From the NCBI RefSeq assembly GCF_003334785.1, contig NZ_QOWV01000041.1: a stretch of 5,793 bases of DNA. One strand, written 5' to 3'. Positions 224-5,793 of this stretch are shown one piece after another (the first letter of the stretch is position 1; each line of letters opens with the position of its first letter). The position numbers and the translations under genes are program-made. Below the pieces are notes generated by a model that saw only the letters and a list, made by a program, of their open reading frames with translations, searched no databases and had not been told where the DNA came from. This stretch comes from Escherichia coli (GTDB lineage: Bacteria; Pseudomonadota; Gammaproteobacteria; Enterobacterales; Enterobacteriaceae).

Positions 224-553
224 CTGCAACGTTTTTCCGCCTGAAAGCTGACTGCCTCCTGCTGAGGTGGGAGGCTATGATTCAGTGCGTTTATAGTCTC
301 CGGGGTATGCATGTACCGGAGCATACCATTTCTGGTGGATAACAAGCCGGCACATTCAGACTGCAGTGAAGATGGAGGCACCTGGTTGTGAAGAACGTTT
401 CTGCCCGTGGCTGCTTCGCATCATCAATGGTATTCATACCCGCTCAGAAATGACCGGGTGCTGAAGCCCTCCGTTATCGCGCAGTATAATGACGTATATG
501 ATCTGTGGACGAGTGAGCGGCGTGCCTGATGTACGCCGCTATTACTGTATTTT

Positions 554-598: not shown

Positions 599-1201
599 TC
601 AACTGTGAGCGGCATCAACCGATGTACGGTATGCCATAAGCACGTACTGATCCATCAGATTTGTCAGTGGTTCACTCTGACCCTGACGTGCAATGATCCA
701 TTGCTCCAGATCTTTTTCTGATTTGTGTTTCAGGTTTTTCGTCCAGTCGTCAAGGCTGTTTCCGGTCATTAAGTCAAGCCAGCAGAGCCAGACCAGTTTG
801 AGACGTAACTCCGTGCCGCCAAACTGACGGAAGAGGCTGATCAGTTTGTTTGCCAGAGAATGTTGCTTCAGGCGCTCACATTCAGACAGCAGGATCCCTT
901 CCAGCATCGGATGATGAACCAGCAGGTGTTCGCTGGTGCATAAATTCACCACCAGATCATCATCCAGGGACGGGGAGCTCCGTTTGTCCGGACCATAAAT
1001 CAGCCGGTGCAGACTCTGGGGAACGATGGCAATCTCCGGTTTTTCGCCATTGAATGACACCCACCCGGGCGTCAGATTATGGAAATAGTAGATATTCGGA
1101 TGACACACGCCCCATGATACGGCGTGCCGGGTGAAGCCGGTCAGCCATTTCTGGTAGTTTTCATGGAGCAGCTCGTAACGGGTCTGATACTGTTGTTTCA
1201 T
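599..1201 (-). CDS. Hypothetical protein (~200 aa), no family recognised; downstream of and co-oriented with alpA
   Basis: Long ORF on the minus strand (six-frame track 599..1216). Likely start is ATG at 1201 with GAGGA 8 nt upstream; alternative starts are ATG 1207 and GTG 1216. It sits 87 bp after the alpA stop and is followed by the hairpin. No motif I can place. Confidence 0.65.
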   Translation of the reverse strand: MKQQYQTRYELLHENYQKWLTGFTRHAVSWGVCHPNIYYFHNLTPGWVSFNGEKPEIAIVPQSLHRLIYGPDKRSSPSLDDDLVVNLCTSEHLLVHHPMLEGILLSECERLKQHSLANKLISLFRQFGGTELRLKLVWLCWLDLMTGNSLDDWTKNLKHKSEKDLEQWIIARQGQSEPLTNLMDQYVLMAYRTSVDAAHS

Positions 1202-1294
1202 TTTCATATTCCTCACGGGGGATAACAGGCAGCAGAGCGCCGCCGGCAGGCCGGAGATTGCGTCTGCTGTGGGCGAAGGGTTAGTGGTTAAAAA

Positions 1295-1507
1295 TTACGG
1301 ACGGGACTGTGCAATACGCGCCTGCAGCCAGGCTTCCACTTCACTTTTCAGCCAGCGGGAGCTGCGCCCCATTTTGATGGGCGCAGGAAAGCCCCCATCT
1401 TTGATGAGTTTGTCAAACCACTTATCGGTTAGGCCGGTCAGTTGAGTGATAAACGCCATGTCGACCATCTGGTCATCCATCAGCGAAACTGGGGTATCCC
1501 GCTTCAT
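1295..1507 (-). CDS. alpA: AlpA-family phage/island transcriptional regulator (MerR-like HTH, excisionase-type)
   Basis: Translation MKRDTPVSLMDDQMVDMAFITQLTGLTDKWFDKLIKDGGFPAPIKMGRSSRWLKSEVEAWLQARIAQSRP carries the AlpA signature (HTH followed by GFP.P.K.G....W...E...W). Size is 70 aa from ATG 1507, with AGGG 5 nt upstream; the track ORF begins at TTG 1510. Start is uncertain; internal Mets at 1480 and 1468 are possible. Confidence 0.85.
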   Translation of the reverse strand: MKRDTPVSLMDDQMVDMAFITQLTGLTDKWFDKLIKDGGFPAPIKMGRSSRWLKSEVEAWLQARIAQSRP

Positions 1508-1922
1508 CAATGCCCTGAAAGCCCGAATCGACGCTTACCAGAAACGTAAGCATCGGGAAGGTAAACGCGTGCATCCCACAACCCTGCATTACGTCTGGGC
1601 CCGGGAGTTTGGGGAGTGCAAAGGTAAAAAACACTATCACCTGATGCTGCTGGTTAACCGGGATACCTGGTGTCGTGCCGGTGATTACCGTGCTCCGGGA
1701 TCACTGGCCGGGATGATTAAACAGGCGTGGTGCAGTGCCCTGGGAGTGGATGTCGGGTGCCATGCCACGCTGGTGCATTTTCCGGCCTGGCCGGCGGTGT
1801 GGCTGGAACGCGATGATGACACTGGCTTTCAGCAGGTGCTGGAACGTGCTGACTATCTGGCGAAGGAACATACCAAAGCTCACTGCACCGGTGAGCGCAA
1901 TTTTGGCTGTAGCCGGAGTTGA
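1446..1922 (+). pseudogene. YagK/YfjJ-family (inovirus Gp2-like, HUH-motif) replication-initiator-like protein, 5'-truncated remnant
   Basis: The ORF contains ..VSRFINALKARIDAYQKRKHREGKRVHPTTLHYVWAREFGE..KKHYHLMLLVN..LVHFP..ADYLAKEHTK..FGCSRS, matching my recollection of this family including the HYH (HUH) motif and the C-terminal FGCS end. The N-terminal ~90 residues of the family are missing. An in-frame TGA at 1443-1445 precedes the ORF, and the expected upstream space is occupied by alpA on the opposite strand. Confidence 0.6.
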
Positions 1923-2175: not shown

Positions 2176-2583
2176 ATGACTATGTACGCAAAATCCTTTA
2201 TCGCTCTTGATGGCAACGGACGTCTGACGGGCGCCCGTACTGCACAGGCCGCACCTTATGCTAACTACACCTGCCACTTGTGTGGCAGTGCACTCAGATA
2301 CCATCCGCAATACGACACTGAACTTCCCTGGTTTGAACACACTGACGACAGGCTGACAGAGCACGGTCAACAGTGCCCTTATGTCAGGCCGGAGCGCAGA
2401 GAAATACAGTTGATTAAACGTCTGCAGCAATTCGTACCGGATGCCTTACCCGTGGTGCGTAAAGCCAGCTGGCACTGCAGACAATGTCACCACGATTATT
2501 ATGGGGAGCGGTACTGCACACACTGCCAGACCGGAGGATTCAGTATTCCCCGGACAACTCAGGAGGAAATATGCGAATTCTGA
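2176..2583 (+). CDS. Cysteine-rich zinc-finger / zinc-ribbon protein A (135 aa): CoiA-N-terminal-like CxxC..PWFEH module plus C-terminal CxxC-x9-CxxC ribbon
   Basis: ORF with ATG at 2176 (or 2182, 8 nt after GAGGA at 2169-2173). Contains YTCHLCGS..PWFEH and WHCRQCHHDYYGERYCTHCQTGG. It is a clear paralogue of the next gene, and conservation of the Cys/His pattern between the two argues that it is a real gene. Confidence 0.75.
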   Translation: MTMYAKSFIALDGNGRLTGARTAQAAPYANYTCHLCGSALRYHPQYDTELPWFEHTDDRLTEHGQQCPYVRPERREIQLIKRLQQFVPDALPVVRKASWHCRQCHHDYYGERYCTHCQTGGFSIPRTTQEEICEF

Positions 2584-2978
2584 ACTGTTATATGGCGAAT
2601 GACAGCAAAGGCCATTTTGTTACGGCGAAAGAAGCAGCGAAGCACAACCGCCAGGACGTTTTGTGCTGTGTGTCCTGTGGATGCCCGTTAACACTTCAGC
2701 GGGGCAATGACGGACAACCACCGTGGTTTGAACATGACCAGATGACTGTCGCTGAGAAAATCCTGCTGCGATGCACCTGGCTTGACCCGGCAGAGAAAGA
2801 GGCCCGTCGTTTGCATCTGCAGGGTATGACGGTTCCGGATTATACGGTGAAGGTGAGAAAGTGGTTTTGTGTGATGTGTGACGAAAATTATGAGGGGGAA
2901 AAGTGCTGCCCGAGTTGTGCTACCGGGGTATACAGCAGGGAGGGGGGGCAGGAGGGCAACTGGAAGGATAGGAACTGA
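2571..2978 (+). CDS. Cysteine-rich zinc-finger / zinc-ribbon protein B (135 aa), paralogue of protein A
   Basis: ATG 2571 is preceded by a consensus AGGAGG at 2561-2566 (4-nt spacer). The track ORF 2484..2978 starts further upstream, but the RBS supports 2571. Contains LCCVSCGCPL..PWFEH and FCVMCDENYEGEKCCPSCATG. It overlaps the stop of gene A (2581-2583) by 13 nt, suggesting translational coupling. Confidence 0.8.
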   Translation: MRILNCYMANDSKGHFVTAKEAAKHNRQDVLCCVSCGCPLTLQRGNDGQPPWFEHDQMTVAEKILLRCTWLDPAEKEARRLHLQGMTVPDYTVKVRKWFCVMCDENYEGEKCCPSCATGVYSREGGQEGNWKDRN

Positions 2979-3261: not shown

Positions 3262-4881
3262 ATGGGCAACGCAATGCACTCTCTTAAGACACTTCTACAG
3301 TTACCTTGCGGATGGCGATGCAGTCGACAAATTATTAGCTCTGACGGTATAACCCTCCATCTCCACGGAAAACGCAAAACAGCACAATGTCCTGAATGCT
3401 TTAAGCGTAGCGACTCTGTTCATAGTTGTCGTCGGCGCCGGATACAGCATCTACCCTGCTCAGGGCAGACGCTATGGCTTGTATTTTCCGTCCGCCACTG
3501 GTACTGCCGTAACCCGGCTTGTTCACGTAAAATTTTTGCCGAGTCGCTTGCTCCCTTCGCCAGTTCACACCAGCAGTCTTCACAGGCGTTACAAAATTAA
3601 CAACGTCAACTGGGATTAATAGCTGGAGGTGAGGCTGGAAAACGGGCTGCAACGGCAGTGGGTCTCCGTTGCAGTGCTGATACTCTTCTTCGCAGGCTTA
3701 TCAATACCCCGGAGACGAAACAGTCAGGCGCGCCTCATGTCGGTATTGATGAGTGGGCGTGGCATCGGGGCCACTGCTGCGGTATGTTAATAGTCAATCC
3801 TGATACTCACCGTCCCCTCGTCCTGCTTCCCGGCCGTGATCAGCGTACGCTGGCGACCTGGTTCAGAAAATATCCGGAAATACAGGTTGTCTCGCGTGAT
3901 CGCAGTGGAGTCTATGCGACAGCAGCACGTGAAGGTGCACCTCAGGCCAGACAGGTGGCCGATCGATGGCACCTGCTAAAAAATATTGGTGATGAGCCTG
4001 AACGAATGATGTACAGATATATGCCTCTGATACGTCTTGTTGTCAGAGAGTTATCACTGAAGAAATCACCTGAGCCAGAAATATCTGTGCCTGTAGCATC
4101 GCTCCGTCGTCTGGAACGCCTTAAACAGCACATCCGCAAAAAACGGCATCAGCGTTGGACAGAGGTTATGGCCCTGCATAACAAGGGATGTAGTTTCAGG
4201 GAAATATCCCGTATTACAGGCCTGTCGCGAGTGACAGTCAGTCGCTGGGTGGGTTCAGGAACATTCCCTGAAATGTCAACTAGGCCTCCAAAGCGAGGGC
4301 TTCTGGACCCATGGAGGGAGTGGTTAAAAGAGCAACGAGAATGTGGTAATTATAACTCCGGCCGGATATGGCGGGAAATGGTGGCCAGGGGGGTTACAGG
4401 CAGTGAAACCATCGTCAGGGATGCTGTTGCCAAATGGCATAAAGGCTGGATCCCACCGGTTACTACTGCCGCAAGACTTCCTTCAGTGTCCCGGGTAAGC
4501 CGCTGGTTGATGCCCTGGAGAATAATCAGGGGTGAAGAAAATTATGCTTTCCGATTTATTAGTCTGATGTGTGAAAAAGAACCGGAGTTGAAAATAGCGC
4601 AGCAACTGGTACTCGAGTTCTACCGTATTCTGAAAACCTAAAATAAATCACAGCTAAGCAGCTGGTTCACTCGGGTCCACGAAAGCGGCTCAGCAGAACT
4701 TCGGTGCGTAGCTGCGGGGATGGAAGCTGATGCTGCGGCTATATGTGAGGCAATCAGCAGTCGCTGGAGTACTGGTGTTGTCGAAGGTCATGTAAATCGC
4801 CTGAAGGTGCTGATACGCCAGATGTATGGTCGAGCCGGACTTGAACTACTTAGGCGGAGGGTAATGAGTCCACTGGCATGA
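3262..4881 (+). pseudogene. ISL3-family transposase, ~539 codons in a single frame, interrupted by two in-frame TAA codons (3598-3600 and 4639-4641)
   Basis: The track ORFs 3262..3600 and 3658..4641, plus the unlisted segment 4642..4881, are all in frame 1. Family-like sequence continues directly across both TAA codons (..QALQN*QRQLGLIAGGEAGKR.. and ..EFYRILKT*NKSQLSSWF..STGVVEGHVNRLK..). There is no frameshift. Confidence 0.8.
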
Positions 4882-4924: not shown

Positions 4925-5253
4925 GTGACAGTATGGCCTTTATGTACTCACTTTGTTACCGGTAGCTGGATCATCACTACCGTGCCGCAAATGGTGGTGA
5001 ACAGCATCAATTGTGGAATGAATGTTGCCGAAGCGACCAATGCGCCTCGTTTCCACCATCAGTGGTTGCCGGACGAGCTGCGTGTTGAAAAGGGTTTAGT
5101 CCGGATACGCTCAAGCTGCTGGAAGCAAAAGGTCAGAAAGTGGCGCTGAATGAGGCGATGGGCAGCACGCAAAGCATTATGGTTGGGTCGGATGGTGAGT
5201 TGTACGGCGCATCCGACTCGCGCTTGGTGGATGATTTAACGGCGGGGTATTAA
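4925..5253 (+). pseudogene. ggt: gamma-glutamyltranspeptidase 3' remnant, 5'-truncated at the IS and carrying a -1 frameshift
   Basis: Translation ..VTGSWIITTVPQMVVNSINCGMNVAEATNAPRFHHQWLPDELRVEKG, then after a frame change PDTLKLLEAKGQKVALNEAMGSTQSIMVGSDGELYGASDSRLVDDLTAGY* (stop 5251-5253), matches the GGT C-terminus as I recall it from E. coli. One T is missing from the T-run at 5095-5097. Relative to the remembered sequence there is also a probable 12-nt in-frame deletion (GSPGGSRII read as GSWII). The 5' boundary is approximate. Confidence 0.8.
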
Positions 5254-5292: not shown

Positions 5293-5715
5293 TTATGCGG
5301 TCAATAATCGTCCGGGATTATCGATACAGAGTTTTTTGAGGATCGTTTTATCGACGCCGCGCTCCGCCAGATAGGCCAGAAAAACATCTGGAACAAATCC
5401 CCAGCCATTACCGCCATTTTTAGCCCACATTTGTTTAAGGAAGACATCGTGGCTGAGAACAAGCTGATCGGCGTATCCCAACTCAATGAGATGAGCGACG
5501 GCATCGGCAGTCTCCTGCACCCCTGGCGCTATTCCCTCTTTCGGGAAGGTAATGTCTAGGCCAATCATGTCGAATTCCAGCCAGACACCTTTATCAAGCA
5601 TTTTCCGCTGATACGCCACGTCTTTTCCTGACGGATCCGAGTGTGCGAGAGAGACTTTATTTGGCGAGACGCCCATTTCACCTAACACAATGTCGAGTAC
5701 TTCGTAAGCGACTCG
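5293..5715 (-). pseudogene. Phosphotriesterase-family (PTE/Php-like amidohydrolase) gene, C-terminal ~140 codons only; frame closed upstream by an in-frame stop
   Basis: Minus-strand translation ..RVAYEVLDIVLGEMGVSPNKVSLAHSD..LVLSHDVFLKQMWAKNGGNGWGFVPDVFLAYLAERGVDKTILKKLCIDNPGRLLTA* aligns to the C-terminal half of E. coli Php-type proteins (..SMDIT..KANGGYGY..ENP..). An in-frame TGA at 5716-5718 ends the frame upstream, and no PTE-like continuation is seen in any frame of 5719-5793. The track ORF starts at GTG 5688. Confidence 0.7.
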
Positions 5716-5793
5716 TCAGAACCGTATTGATATTTACTGAGAGCTCAGATCAACTTTCCAGGGCAACAGATCGCGTACCCGGTTTGCCGGCCA

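Follow-up and report, generated by a model that had tools for sequence, protein, structure and literature searches.

A small alpA-family gene and the 200-residue open reading frame (ORF) downstream of it constitute a conserved two-gene unit at the core of a common enterobacterial island family. Both lie on the minus strand of a 5,793-nucleotide stretch of Escherichia coli contig NZ_QOWV01000041.1 (the window), alpA at positions 1295–1507 and the ORF at 599–1201, in agreement with a preliminary description of this DNA that had reported them as co-oriented. No relative with a known function or fold could be detected for the ORF protein, which belongs to an orphan family. The spacer between the two genes holds a leader that is conserved as a covarying structure and travels with the ORF, and which is presented here for the first time as a candidate new cis-regulatory RNA motif. 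The module in the window is itself a remnant, the alpA start and upstream control region being gone and the neighbouring Rep-like gene truncated. Neither the structured leader nor the loss of the alpA start codon and promoter region had figured in the preliminary description.

Conservation of the unit emerges from a survey in which one genome per species was scanned and 42 loci were recovered, representing about 35 species; every named organism among them belongs to the Enterobacterales. Two loci (L027 and L033) are metagenome-assembled genomes labelled Clostridiales and Bacillota; they carry typical enterobacterial copies of the module, with 58–60% identity and the same synteny, and are probably mis-binned. 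alpA is located directly 5′ of the ORF on the same strand in 38 of the 42 loci, with a Zn-ribbon gene interposed in two others, while one of the remaining loci is cut by a contig end and one is without alpA. A Rep-like gene of the Gp2/YfjJ family adjoins the pair in about 40 of the 42, in the order Rep–alpA–ORF or alpA–ORF–Rep, and a YeeP-like GTPase gene is found 2–3 kb from the pair on the other strand across the surveyed loci. In addition to this GTPase, the islands carry DUF932, antirestriction, RadC and CbtA/CbeA genes. The cargo around the pair varies and includes BREX, type I restriction–modification (RM), LlaJI, a type VI secretion system, fimbriae and sugar genes. Because the position of the ORF next to alpA and the Rep-like gene is fixed while this cargo changes, the ORF is part of the island backbone rather than cargo. 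Comparison of context across islands thus finds the ORF conserved in related islands.

The ORF gene is present in 3347 of 5426 complete E. coli genomes (~62%), with a median of 2 copies and a maximum of 6, and is always annotated ‘hypothetical protein’. The family is close to absent from phages and plasmids, with 1 member-bearing record among 50,697 for phages, 9 among 72,556 for plasmids (mostly megabase-sized replicons) and 2 among 2.9 million viral contigs. The sole phage record with a member, OR851001.1, is an unannotated Salmonella fragment of 3578 bp (positions 2002–2469, 33% identity), possibly island DNA that was carried along in a phage preparation. Two tandem ORF paralogues are present in several islands. 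Diverged pairs were observed in L003 (9190–9717 and 10001–10597), L012 (7273–7848 and 8001–8525) and L023 (5998–6588 and 9043–9624), where a long member is accompanied by one of a ~175-aa subfamily and each has its own leader stem-loop. Such pairing suggests heterodimers or two specificities.

Judged from its sequence, the ORF is a real gene under purifying selection, with ratios of nonsynonymous to synonymous substitution rates (dN/dS) of 0.10–0.21 against three homologues. It was first listed as 599–1216 (−) with a GTG start. The evidence favours the ATG at 1201, which gives a protein of 200 aa; it is the choice of the Prokaryotic Genome Annotation Pipeline (PGAP), is preceded 7 nt upstream by a GAGGAA Shine–Dalgarno sequence (1209–1214) and fits the alignment of homologues. 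The spacer then measures 93 nt (1202–1294, minus strand), whereas the 87 bp given in the preliminary description fits an in-frame ATG at 1207. The protein (WP_000813432.1, labelled ‘hypothetical protein’ by PGAP) belongs to an ‘Aec62’-like family, for which a single-sequence search recovered 187 homologue clusters and a profile search 421; an exhaustive hidden Markov model search of 1.84 billion cluster representatives returned 125 matches, mostly fragments. It is 99% identical to cluster P0003 and 57–66% identical to homologues from other genera over 95–100% of its length. Across 19–51 sequences, two motifs are invariant, G-x-L-x-S-E-C-x-R-L (residues 102–111) and L-x-x-L-C-W (136–141). Residues P61, G102, L104, S106, R110, L111, L139, W141 and Y186 are invariant, and E107, C108 and C140 nearly so.

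An AlphaFold2 model computed from an alignment of 51 sequences (predicted local distance difference test score 88.5, predicted template modelling (TM) score 0.86) shows a long N-terminal helix, a β-hairpin and a six-helix C-terminal bundle. Results of a Foldseek search show that this model superposes on that of Aec62 (Q5K5T0) with a TM score of 0.98, and against AFDB50 the protein matched its own family only, under the name ‘Aec62’ or under spurious-looking labels. Two such labels, ‘malate transporter’ and ‘secretoglobin’, look propagated without support and were discarded, the protein having no Pfam or family match and a soluble α/β model. Foldseek matches to the PDB obtained with an earlier, poor model, including PLpro, had E-values of about 3–8 and are meaningless. 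Sequence and profile searches of the PDB gave no match, and neither did a search of PHROGs with the ORF protein and eight distant members. NCBIfam contains no matching family, and the PADLOC defence-system models yielded 0 families at E≤0.1. Neither the ORF protein nor any of the 51 members has a significant Pfam match, the single match among them being to the DnaG helicase-binding domain (DnaG_HBD; E=0.016, not significant). Walker, primase and helicase motifs are absent from the protein. Profile–profile comparison of the family with K-12 YagJ, YfjI, YfjH and a 304-aa neighbour gave a probability of ≤0.2% in each case. The view of the preliminary description that the second protein has no assignable motif therefore holds, and the profile and structure searches revealed no homology to housekeeping or phage structural families. 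A literature search for Aec62 and WP_000813432 found nothing relevant.

The spacer between alpA and the ORF contains a nested stem-loop at 1230–1269 (minus strand), with an outer stem CAGCAGA/TCTGCTG, an inner stem CCGG/CCGG and a minimum free energy of −20.9 kcal/mol, which ends 28 nt 5′ of the ORF start codon. Throughout the family, spacers of 85–107 nt share this architecture, the nested stem-loop being followed by CCTGT(C/A)ATT and a Shine–Dalgarno sequence, and the fold is seen in every spacer. The two arms change jointly, both in the outer stem (CAGCAGA/TCTGCTG, CAGCCAG/CTGGCTG, GCCGT/ACGGC) and in the inner one (CCGG/CCGG, CCGA/TCGG, CCGC/GCGG, CCGT/ACGG). Leaders of second paralogues and of the distant subfamily display the same architecture with unrelated inner stems (GGCAC/GTGCC, CCGAT/ATCGG). 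At E≤0.03, covariance models detect a single copy of the leader in each of 30 loci, directly before the ORF, and they find no match in the K-12 islands. It stays with the ORF in L047, where a Zn-ribbon gene parts alpA from the ORF.

RNAalifold run on a plain MAFFT alignment recovered the 4-bp inner stem only, because the 5′ arm is out of register in that alignment; the leader was tested instead by covariance models and by a comparison of own with foreign arms. In the model-fitted alignment, 87.8% of cells are paired, as against 34–55% with slid partners, and U–G wobbles are frequent; at one base pair the loci show GC 17 times, CG 7 times and AU twice. The alignment contains 12 double-change cells, a count reached in 0 of 500 shuffles, although these statistics overstate the significance because the alignment was fitted to the structure and the sequences share a phylogenetic history. 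Duplexes between a leader's own arms have an energy of −10.6 kcal/mol, compared with −7.9 kcal/mol for foreign arms, and in 25 of 30 cases the 5′ arm has a better partner in its own 3′ arm than in foreign ones. Of 30 segments, which had been chosen on their sense fold, 21 fold more favourably as the sense strand than as the antisense strand. A comparison with Rfam (4227 covariance models) gave, for both the leader and the hairpin found beyond the ORF, chance matches at E>3, far under gathering scores. The 11-mer TTTCTGCTGCC was also considered as a dispersed binding site and rejected: it has a single occurrence in the window, and each locus has one copy of the 14-mer GGTTTTCTGCTGCC.

The promoter scan of the spacer, in the window and in its relatives, found no promoter-like site, and no σ70-like promoter was called in the spacer of the window. 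Since the stem-loop ends ~30 nt before the ORF start, which is too short a distance for a promoter of the ORF's own, and no promoter was called, ORF transcripts must run through it. In one clade (clade 1), the inner hairpin TCCGG..CCGGA together with GGTTTTCTGC was called terminator-like; the call in this clade rests on the inner hairpin plus GGTTTTCTG.

On balance, we lean towards a reading in which the two genes are the core of a regulatory or replication-type module of the CP4-type integrative islands of Enterobacterales, with the ORF as a backbone gene that is read through its structured leader from the alpA promoter. The ORF would be the second cistron, most likely transcribed from the alpA promoter, and RNA polymerase would pass the conserved nested stem-loop shortly before reaching the start codon. 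The leader would act as RNA, setting the level of the ORF protein relative to AlpA, whether through attenuation or read-through, perhaps with help from AlpA, through processing or through stabilization of the message. The ORF protein would in turn be an accessory or regulatory factor of the island life cycle, cooperating with AlpA and the HUH Rep-like protein where excision, replication or transfer is controlled. It would probably do so as a dimer, given that several islands carry two tandem paralogues.

Several observations weigh against this proposal. Co-transcription of alpA and the ORF is deduced rather than seen directly, and the accessory role in the life cycle is argued from gene position, all library searches having been negative. 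The AlpA-binding element (ABE) of Pseudomonas aeruginosa, GGGACG-N5-GGTA, has 3 matches with ≤2 mismatches, as against 4.0 expected, and none lies in the spacer. The U-tract is absent from the leader of the window (CGGCGCTCTG) and from the other clades, and because it follows the inner hairpin in one clade only, attenuation is not family-wide. The window leader matches covariance model R2 weakly (1229–1270, minus strand; 16.5 bits, E about 0.5), and the structure-fitted alignment and shared ancestry that inflate the shuffle statistics belong on the same side of the balance. Finally, both alpA and the leader are missing from the most divergent subfamily (L013).

Antitermination by P. aeruginosa AlpA is, by analogy, the nearest mechanistic counterpart of such an arrangement: there, AlpA enables RNA polymerase to read past a terminator that sits shortly before the target ORF (PMC7969949, PMC9371919). 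The alpA-tB-alpBCDE cassette resembles the present unit in that a small AlpA-family gene lies directly 5′ of a hairpin preceding the first target ORF and, in one clade of the family described here, that hairpin is terminator-like. It differs in that the present loci show no ABE motif beyond chance and no separate promoter detected in the 95-nt spacer; moreover, the U-tract is not conserved here, being absent in the window, and the gene that follows bears no relation to alpBCDE. A related core is found in the tmRNA genomic islands of Pseudomonas, which are built around intY, alpA and an inovirus Gp2-like gene (PMC12595487). These islands likewise place alpA next to the Gp2-like gene, carry RadC and defence cargo and are mobile without conjugation or capsid genes (PMC12595487). 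They belong, however, to a different host order, and the 200-aa family is found in Enterobacterales only, which makes it a lineage-specific addition to the alpA/Gp2 module.

Among enterobacterial islands, the alpA-yfjI-yfjJ block of K-12 CP4-57 shows a comparable organization. In both cases an AlpA-family gene heads a co-oriented block with a Gp2/YfjJ-family Rep-like gene, and the backbone comprises a YeeP/YfjP GTPase, DUF932, antirestriction, RadC and a CbtA-type toxin–antitoxin pair. The CP4-57 AlpA is an activator of intA and of excision. The gene that follows alpA in CP4-57 is nevertheless a different one, yfjI (DUF3987, 469 aa), and K-12 contains neither a homologue of the ORF nor the leader. 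Another counterpart is found in the Shigella SRL pathogenicity island (PAI), in which YfjJ-like, Hha-like, Vis/AlpA and ‘no similarity’ genes (orf39–orf42) are followed by YeeP and Ag43 (PMC6980539). There, orf42 occupies the slot homologous to that of the window ORF, a match made by gene order and not by sequence. ‘Aec62’, the UniProt name given to close homologues of the window ORF, derives from E. coli AGI-3. In the text covered, the SRL PAI and AGI-3 reports list the ORF as having no similarity and give no function, fold or leader (PMC6980539). To the extent of that text, the gene has been sequenced since the SRL PAI and AGI-3 descriptions and never characterized (PMC6980539).

The rival explanations are all less likely than the backbone-module reading. 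The preliminary description had proposed a regulator–cargo unit closed by a hairpin. In such a unit the 200-aa protein would be a payload activated by AlpA, for instance one that is toxic or acts against phages or against defence systems. A unit there certainly is, as alpA stands 5′ of the ORF in most loci, and a payload would suit a gene that in several islands lies at the edge of the variable cargo (BREX, RM systems), that exists in several diverged copies per genome and that encodes a protein of orphan fold to which no function can be assigned. Nonetheless, cargo is an improbable description of a gene whose position is the same in about 35 species whatever the cargo, which has its own conserved leader and tandem paralogues, which moves as a block with alpA and the Rep gene in two alternative orders, and whose product matches no PADLOC model. 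The hairpin, for its part, proves specific to the island variant and without terminator features. A different explanation places the signal in DNA: the leader hairpin and its invariant GCTGCCTGT 3′ flank would be an origin, or a nick site resembling an origin of transfer (oriT), for the HUH Rep-like protein of the YfjJ/YagK family, with AlpA and the 200-aa protein as accessory DNA-binding factors. The Rep-like gene that adjoins the pair in nearly all loci keeps its HUH (HYH) and YxxK motifs, the islands carry genes of the type found in plasmid leading regions (antirestriction, DUF932, RadC), and the primary sequence of the leader is best conserved at the 3′ arm and flank, as is likewise the case in the hairpin-plus-nic sites of relaxases. 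Yet K-12 CP4-57 and CP4-6 possess YfjJ and YagK without the ORF and without the element, and the element tracks the ORF, including second paralogues away from the Rep gene. The loop sequences vary, and the frequent U–G pairs point to an RNA of the sense strand, so that we rate a DNA site as improbable to the same degree as cargo.

Least probable, and indeed very unlikely, is that the ORF protein is a small replication accessory factor replacing or partnering the primase–helicase-like DUF3987/YfjI protein. It sits in the slot of YfjI (alpA, X, yfjJ) in K-12 CP4-57, the preliminary description had named a primase or replicase among the genes usually found after alpA, and one of the 51 members shows the weak match to the DnaG helicase-binding domain. 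That lone Pfam match is not significant, however, and the protein lacks the motifs of such enzymes; hhalign gives a probability of 0.1% for the family against YfjI, and the sister island variant carries both the ORF and a DUF3987 gene. A further possibility, doubtful but worth stating, is that the 200-aa family and its own leader constitute a self-contained switch of a new type, in which the protein would bind the leader, as RNA or DNA, and with AlpA decide between silence and the excision, replication and transfer of the CP4-type island. Such a switch could also provide immunity or specificity between related islands in one genome, and the subfamilies and tandem paralogues could then be specificity variants.

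The preliminary description had also pointed to a perfect 13-bp hairpin right after the ORF, and this is confirmed. An inverted repeat at 554–589, with fully (100%) complementary arms at 554–566 and 577–589 and a 10-nt loop, starts 9 nt after the stop codon. Its stem is rich in G+C (9 of 13 pairs are G–C), and as RNA it has a centroid energy of −26.6 kcal/mol (z = −4.35), with 0 of 200 shuffles folding as well. The stem is followed by AAAAUACAGU when read along the gene strand and by UCUCAGAC on the opposite strand, and neither strand has a U-tract. A terminator scan of the window did not call this hairpin, which fails the definition of an intrinsic terminator because its loop is 10 nt (compared with 3–8) and a U-tract is missing. 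Homology to the sister island variant ends at window position 615, other islands have a different hairpin or none after the ORF stop, and the 413 bp downstream of the ORF are single-copy and at least 99% identical in 1804 genome records, being almost invariant in about 1900 genomes. We read the hairpin as specific to this island variant, where it marks the end of the unit and is probably a 3′-end structure.

The loop of this hairpin (567–576) reads GGTTTTCTGCTGCC on the plus strand, the strand opposite to the ORF, and elsewhere this is an exact 14-mer of the leader 3′ arm (L019 2765–2778, L020 5961–5974). This may be coincidental, or the loop may retain part of an earlier second leader or a protein site that the two have in common. 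A second hairpin lies at 507–529 (plus strand), 25 nt beyond the first, with a 7-bp stem (GCGGCGT/ACGCCGC) and a 9-nt loop. A tblastn search of positions 188–598 of the window, beyond the ORF, for remnants of an AlpA-like or DUF3987 gene found nothing.

The window is part of a decayed CP4-44-type island adjoining cobUST and tRNA-Asn in E. coli. A BLAST comparison with strain PI7 (L001) reveals two deletions, one within the insertion sequence IS100 and one of 1666 bp. The junction of the latter lies at 1489–1496, within 8 bp of microhomology, and joins alpA codons 3–4 to internal sequence of the Gp2/YfjJ Rep-like gene, which is divergently oriented. The deleted segment comprised the native alpA start, ~1.1 kb of non-coding upstream DNA, a Zn-ribbon membrane ORF of 66 aa and the 5′ end of the Rep gene. 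The same junction is present in 2 of the 5426 complete E. coli genomes, and thus represents a real allele. For strain JKHS016, PGAP annotates the same 213-bp alpA coding sequence as in the window. Because the module is a remnant, its intact ORF is probably poorly expressed, or not expressed, from native signals.

The alpA product (70 aa) is assigned to the AlpA family of excisionase-type winged helix-turn-helix proteins by Pfam PF05930 Phage_AlpA (i-E=2e-5, score 24.8, model positions 4–51 of 51) and by PHROG 66, ‘excisionase and transcriptional regulator’ (E=3e-9). It scores 19.5 bits against the NCBIfam excisionase domain TIGR01764, under the cut-off of 28.8, and for that reason PGAP names it only ‘helix-turn-helix transcriptional regulator’. 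Its 5′ end is chimeric: the native ‘MA’ start (MATPVSL... in L001) has become MKRDTPVSL... in the window, where the deletion has created four non-native initial codons (MKRD), read from antisense Rep-gene sequence. As the deletion removed both the start and the upstream region, this alpA is without its native control region. The long alpA upstream region of intact relatives holds the Zn-ribbon membrane ORF (L001 15783–15983, minus strand). That of the sister variant contains a Hha-like gene on the opposite strand (L006 8807–8956, minus strand), which hints at silencing of the module by H-NS/Hha. Intact examples of the sister variant, with an ORF 90% identical to that of the window, are L005 to L008. 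An integrase gene was found neither in the window nor in the 12-kb flanks of L001.

The Rep-like gene, which in relatives forms a module with alpA and the ORF, remains in the window as a 5′-truncated gene of the Gp2/YfjJ/YagK family (1494–1922, plus strand), identified by tblastn against YfjJ and YagK and annotated by PGAP as ‘inovirus Gp2 family protein, missing N-terminus’. It keeps the HUH motif (HYHLML) and a YLAK motif, and its product matches PHROG 25019 with E=5e-38. It is followed by two overlapping paralogous Zn-ribbon genes (DUF7828/Zn_ribbon_11) at 2176–2583 and 2571–2978 (plus strand), each of 135 aa and ~30% identical to one another. This gene pair is found again in many related islands and can lie between alpA and the 200-aa ORF (L047, L049).

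The rest of the window bears further marks of decay. Positions 1–187 contain a 5′ fragment of IS100 istB (the first ~48 codons), fused at 186/187 to the DNA 413 bp downstream of the ORF; at this junction 1154 bp are missing relative to strain PI7. An ISL3-family transposase pseudogene with an internal stop or frameshift occupies 3262–4881 (plus strand), followed by a 3′ fragment of ggt (4925–5252, plus strand) and a truncated phosphotriesterase-related gene (5293–5703, minus strand). The last 90 bases (5704–5793) have no match in the PI7 or JKHS016 flanks. Protein P0128 (319 aa) consists of the first ~216 residues of a phosphotriesterase-related protein and the C-terminal ~100 residues of the 200-aa ORF, and some strain must therefore have a further deletion joining these two genes.

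CP4-type islands bring virulence, defence and metabolic cargo to most E. coli and to many other Enterobacterales, and their regulation and movement are poorly understood beyond AlpA and the integrase. Should the ORF protein be inert for island biology, the finding would shrink to one more conserved hypothetical gene. Being widespread, linked to alpA and to the Rep-like gene, of a confidently modelled orphan fold and preceded by a conserved leader, the ORF protein is a candidate for a missing component of that control.

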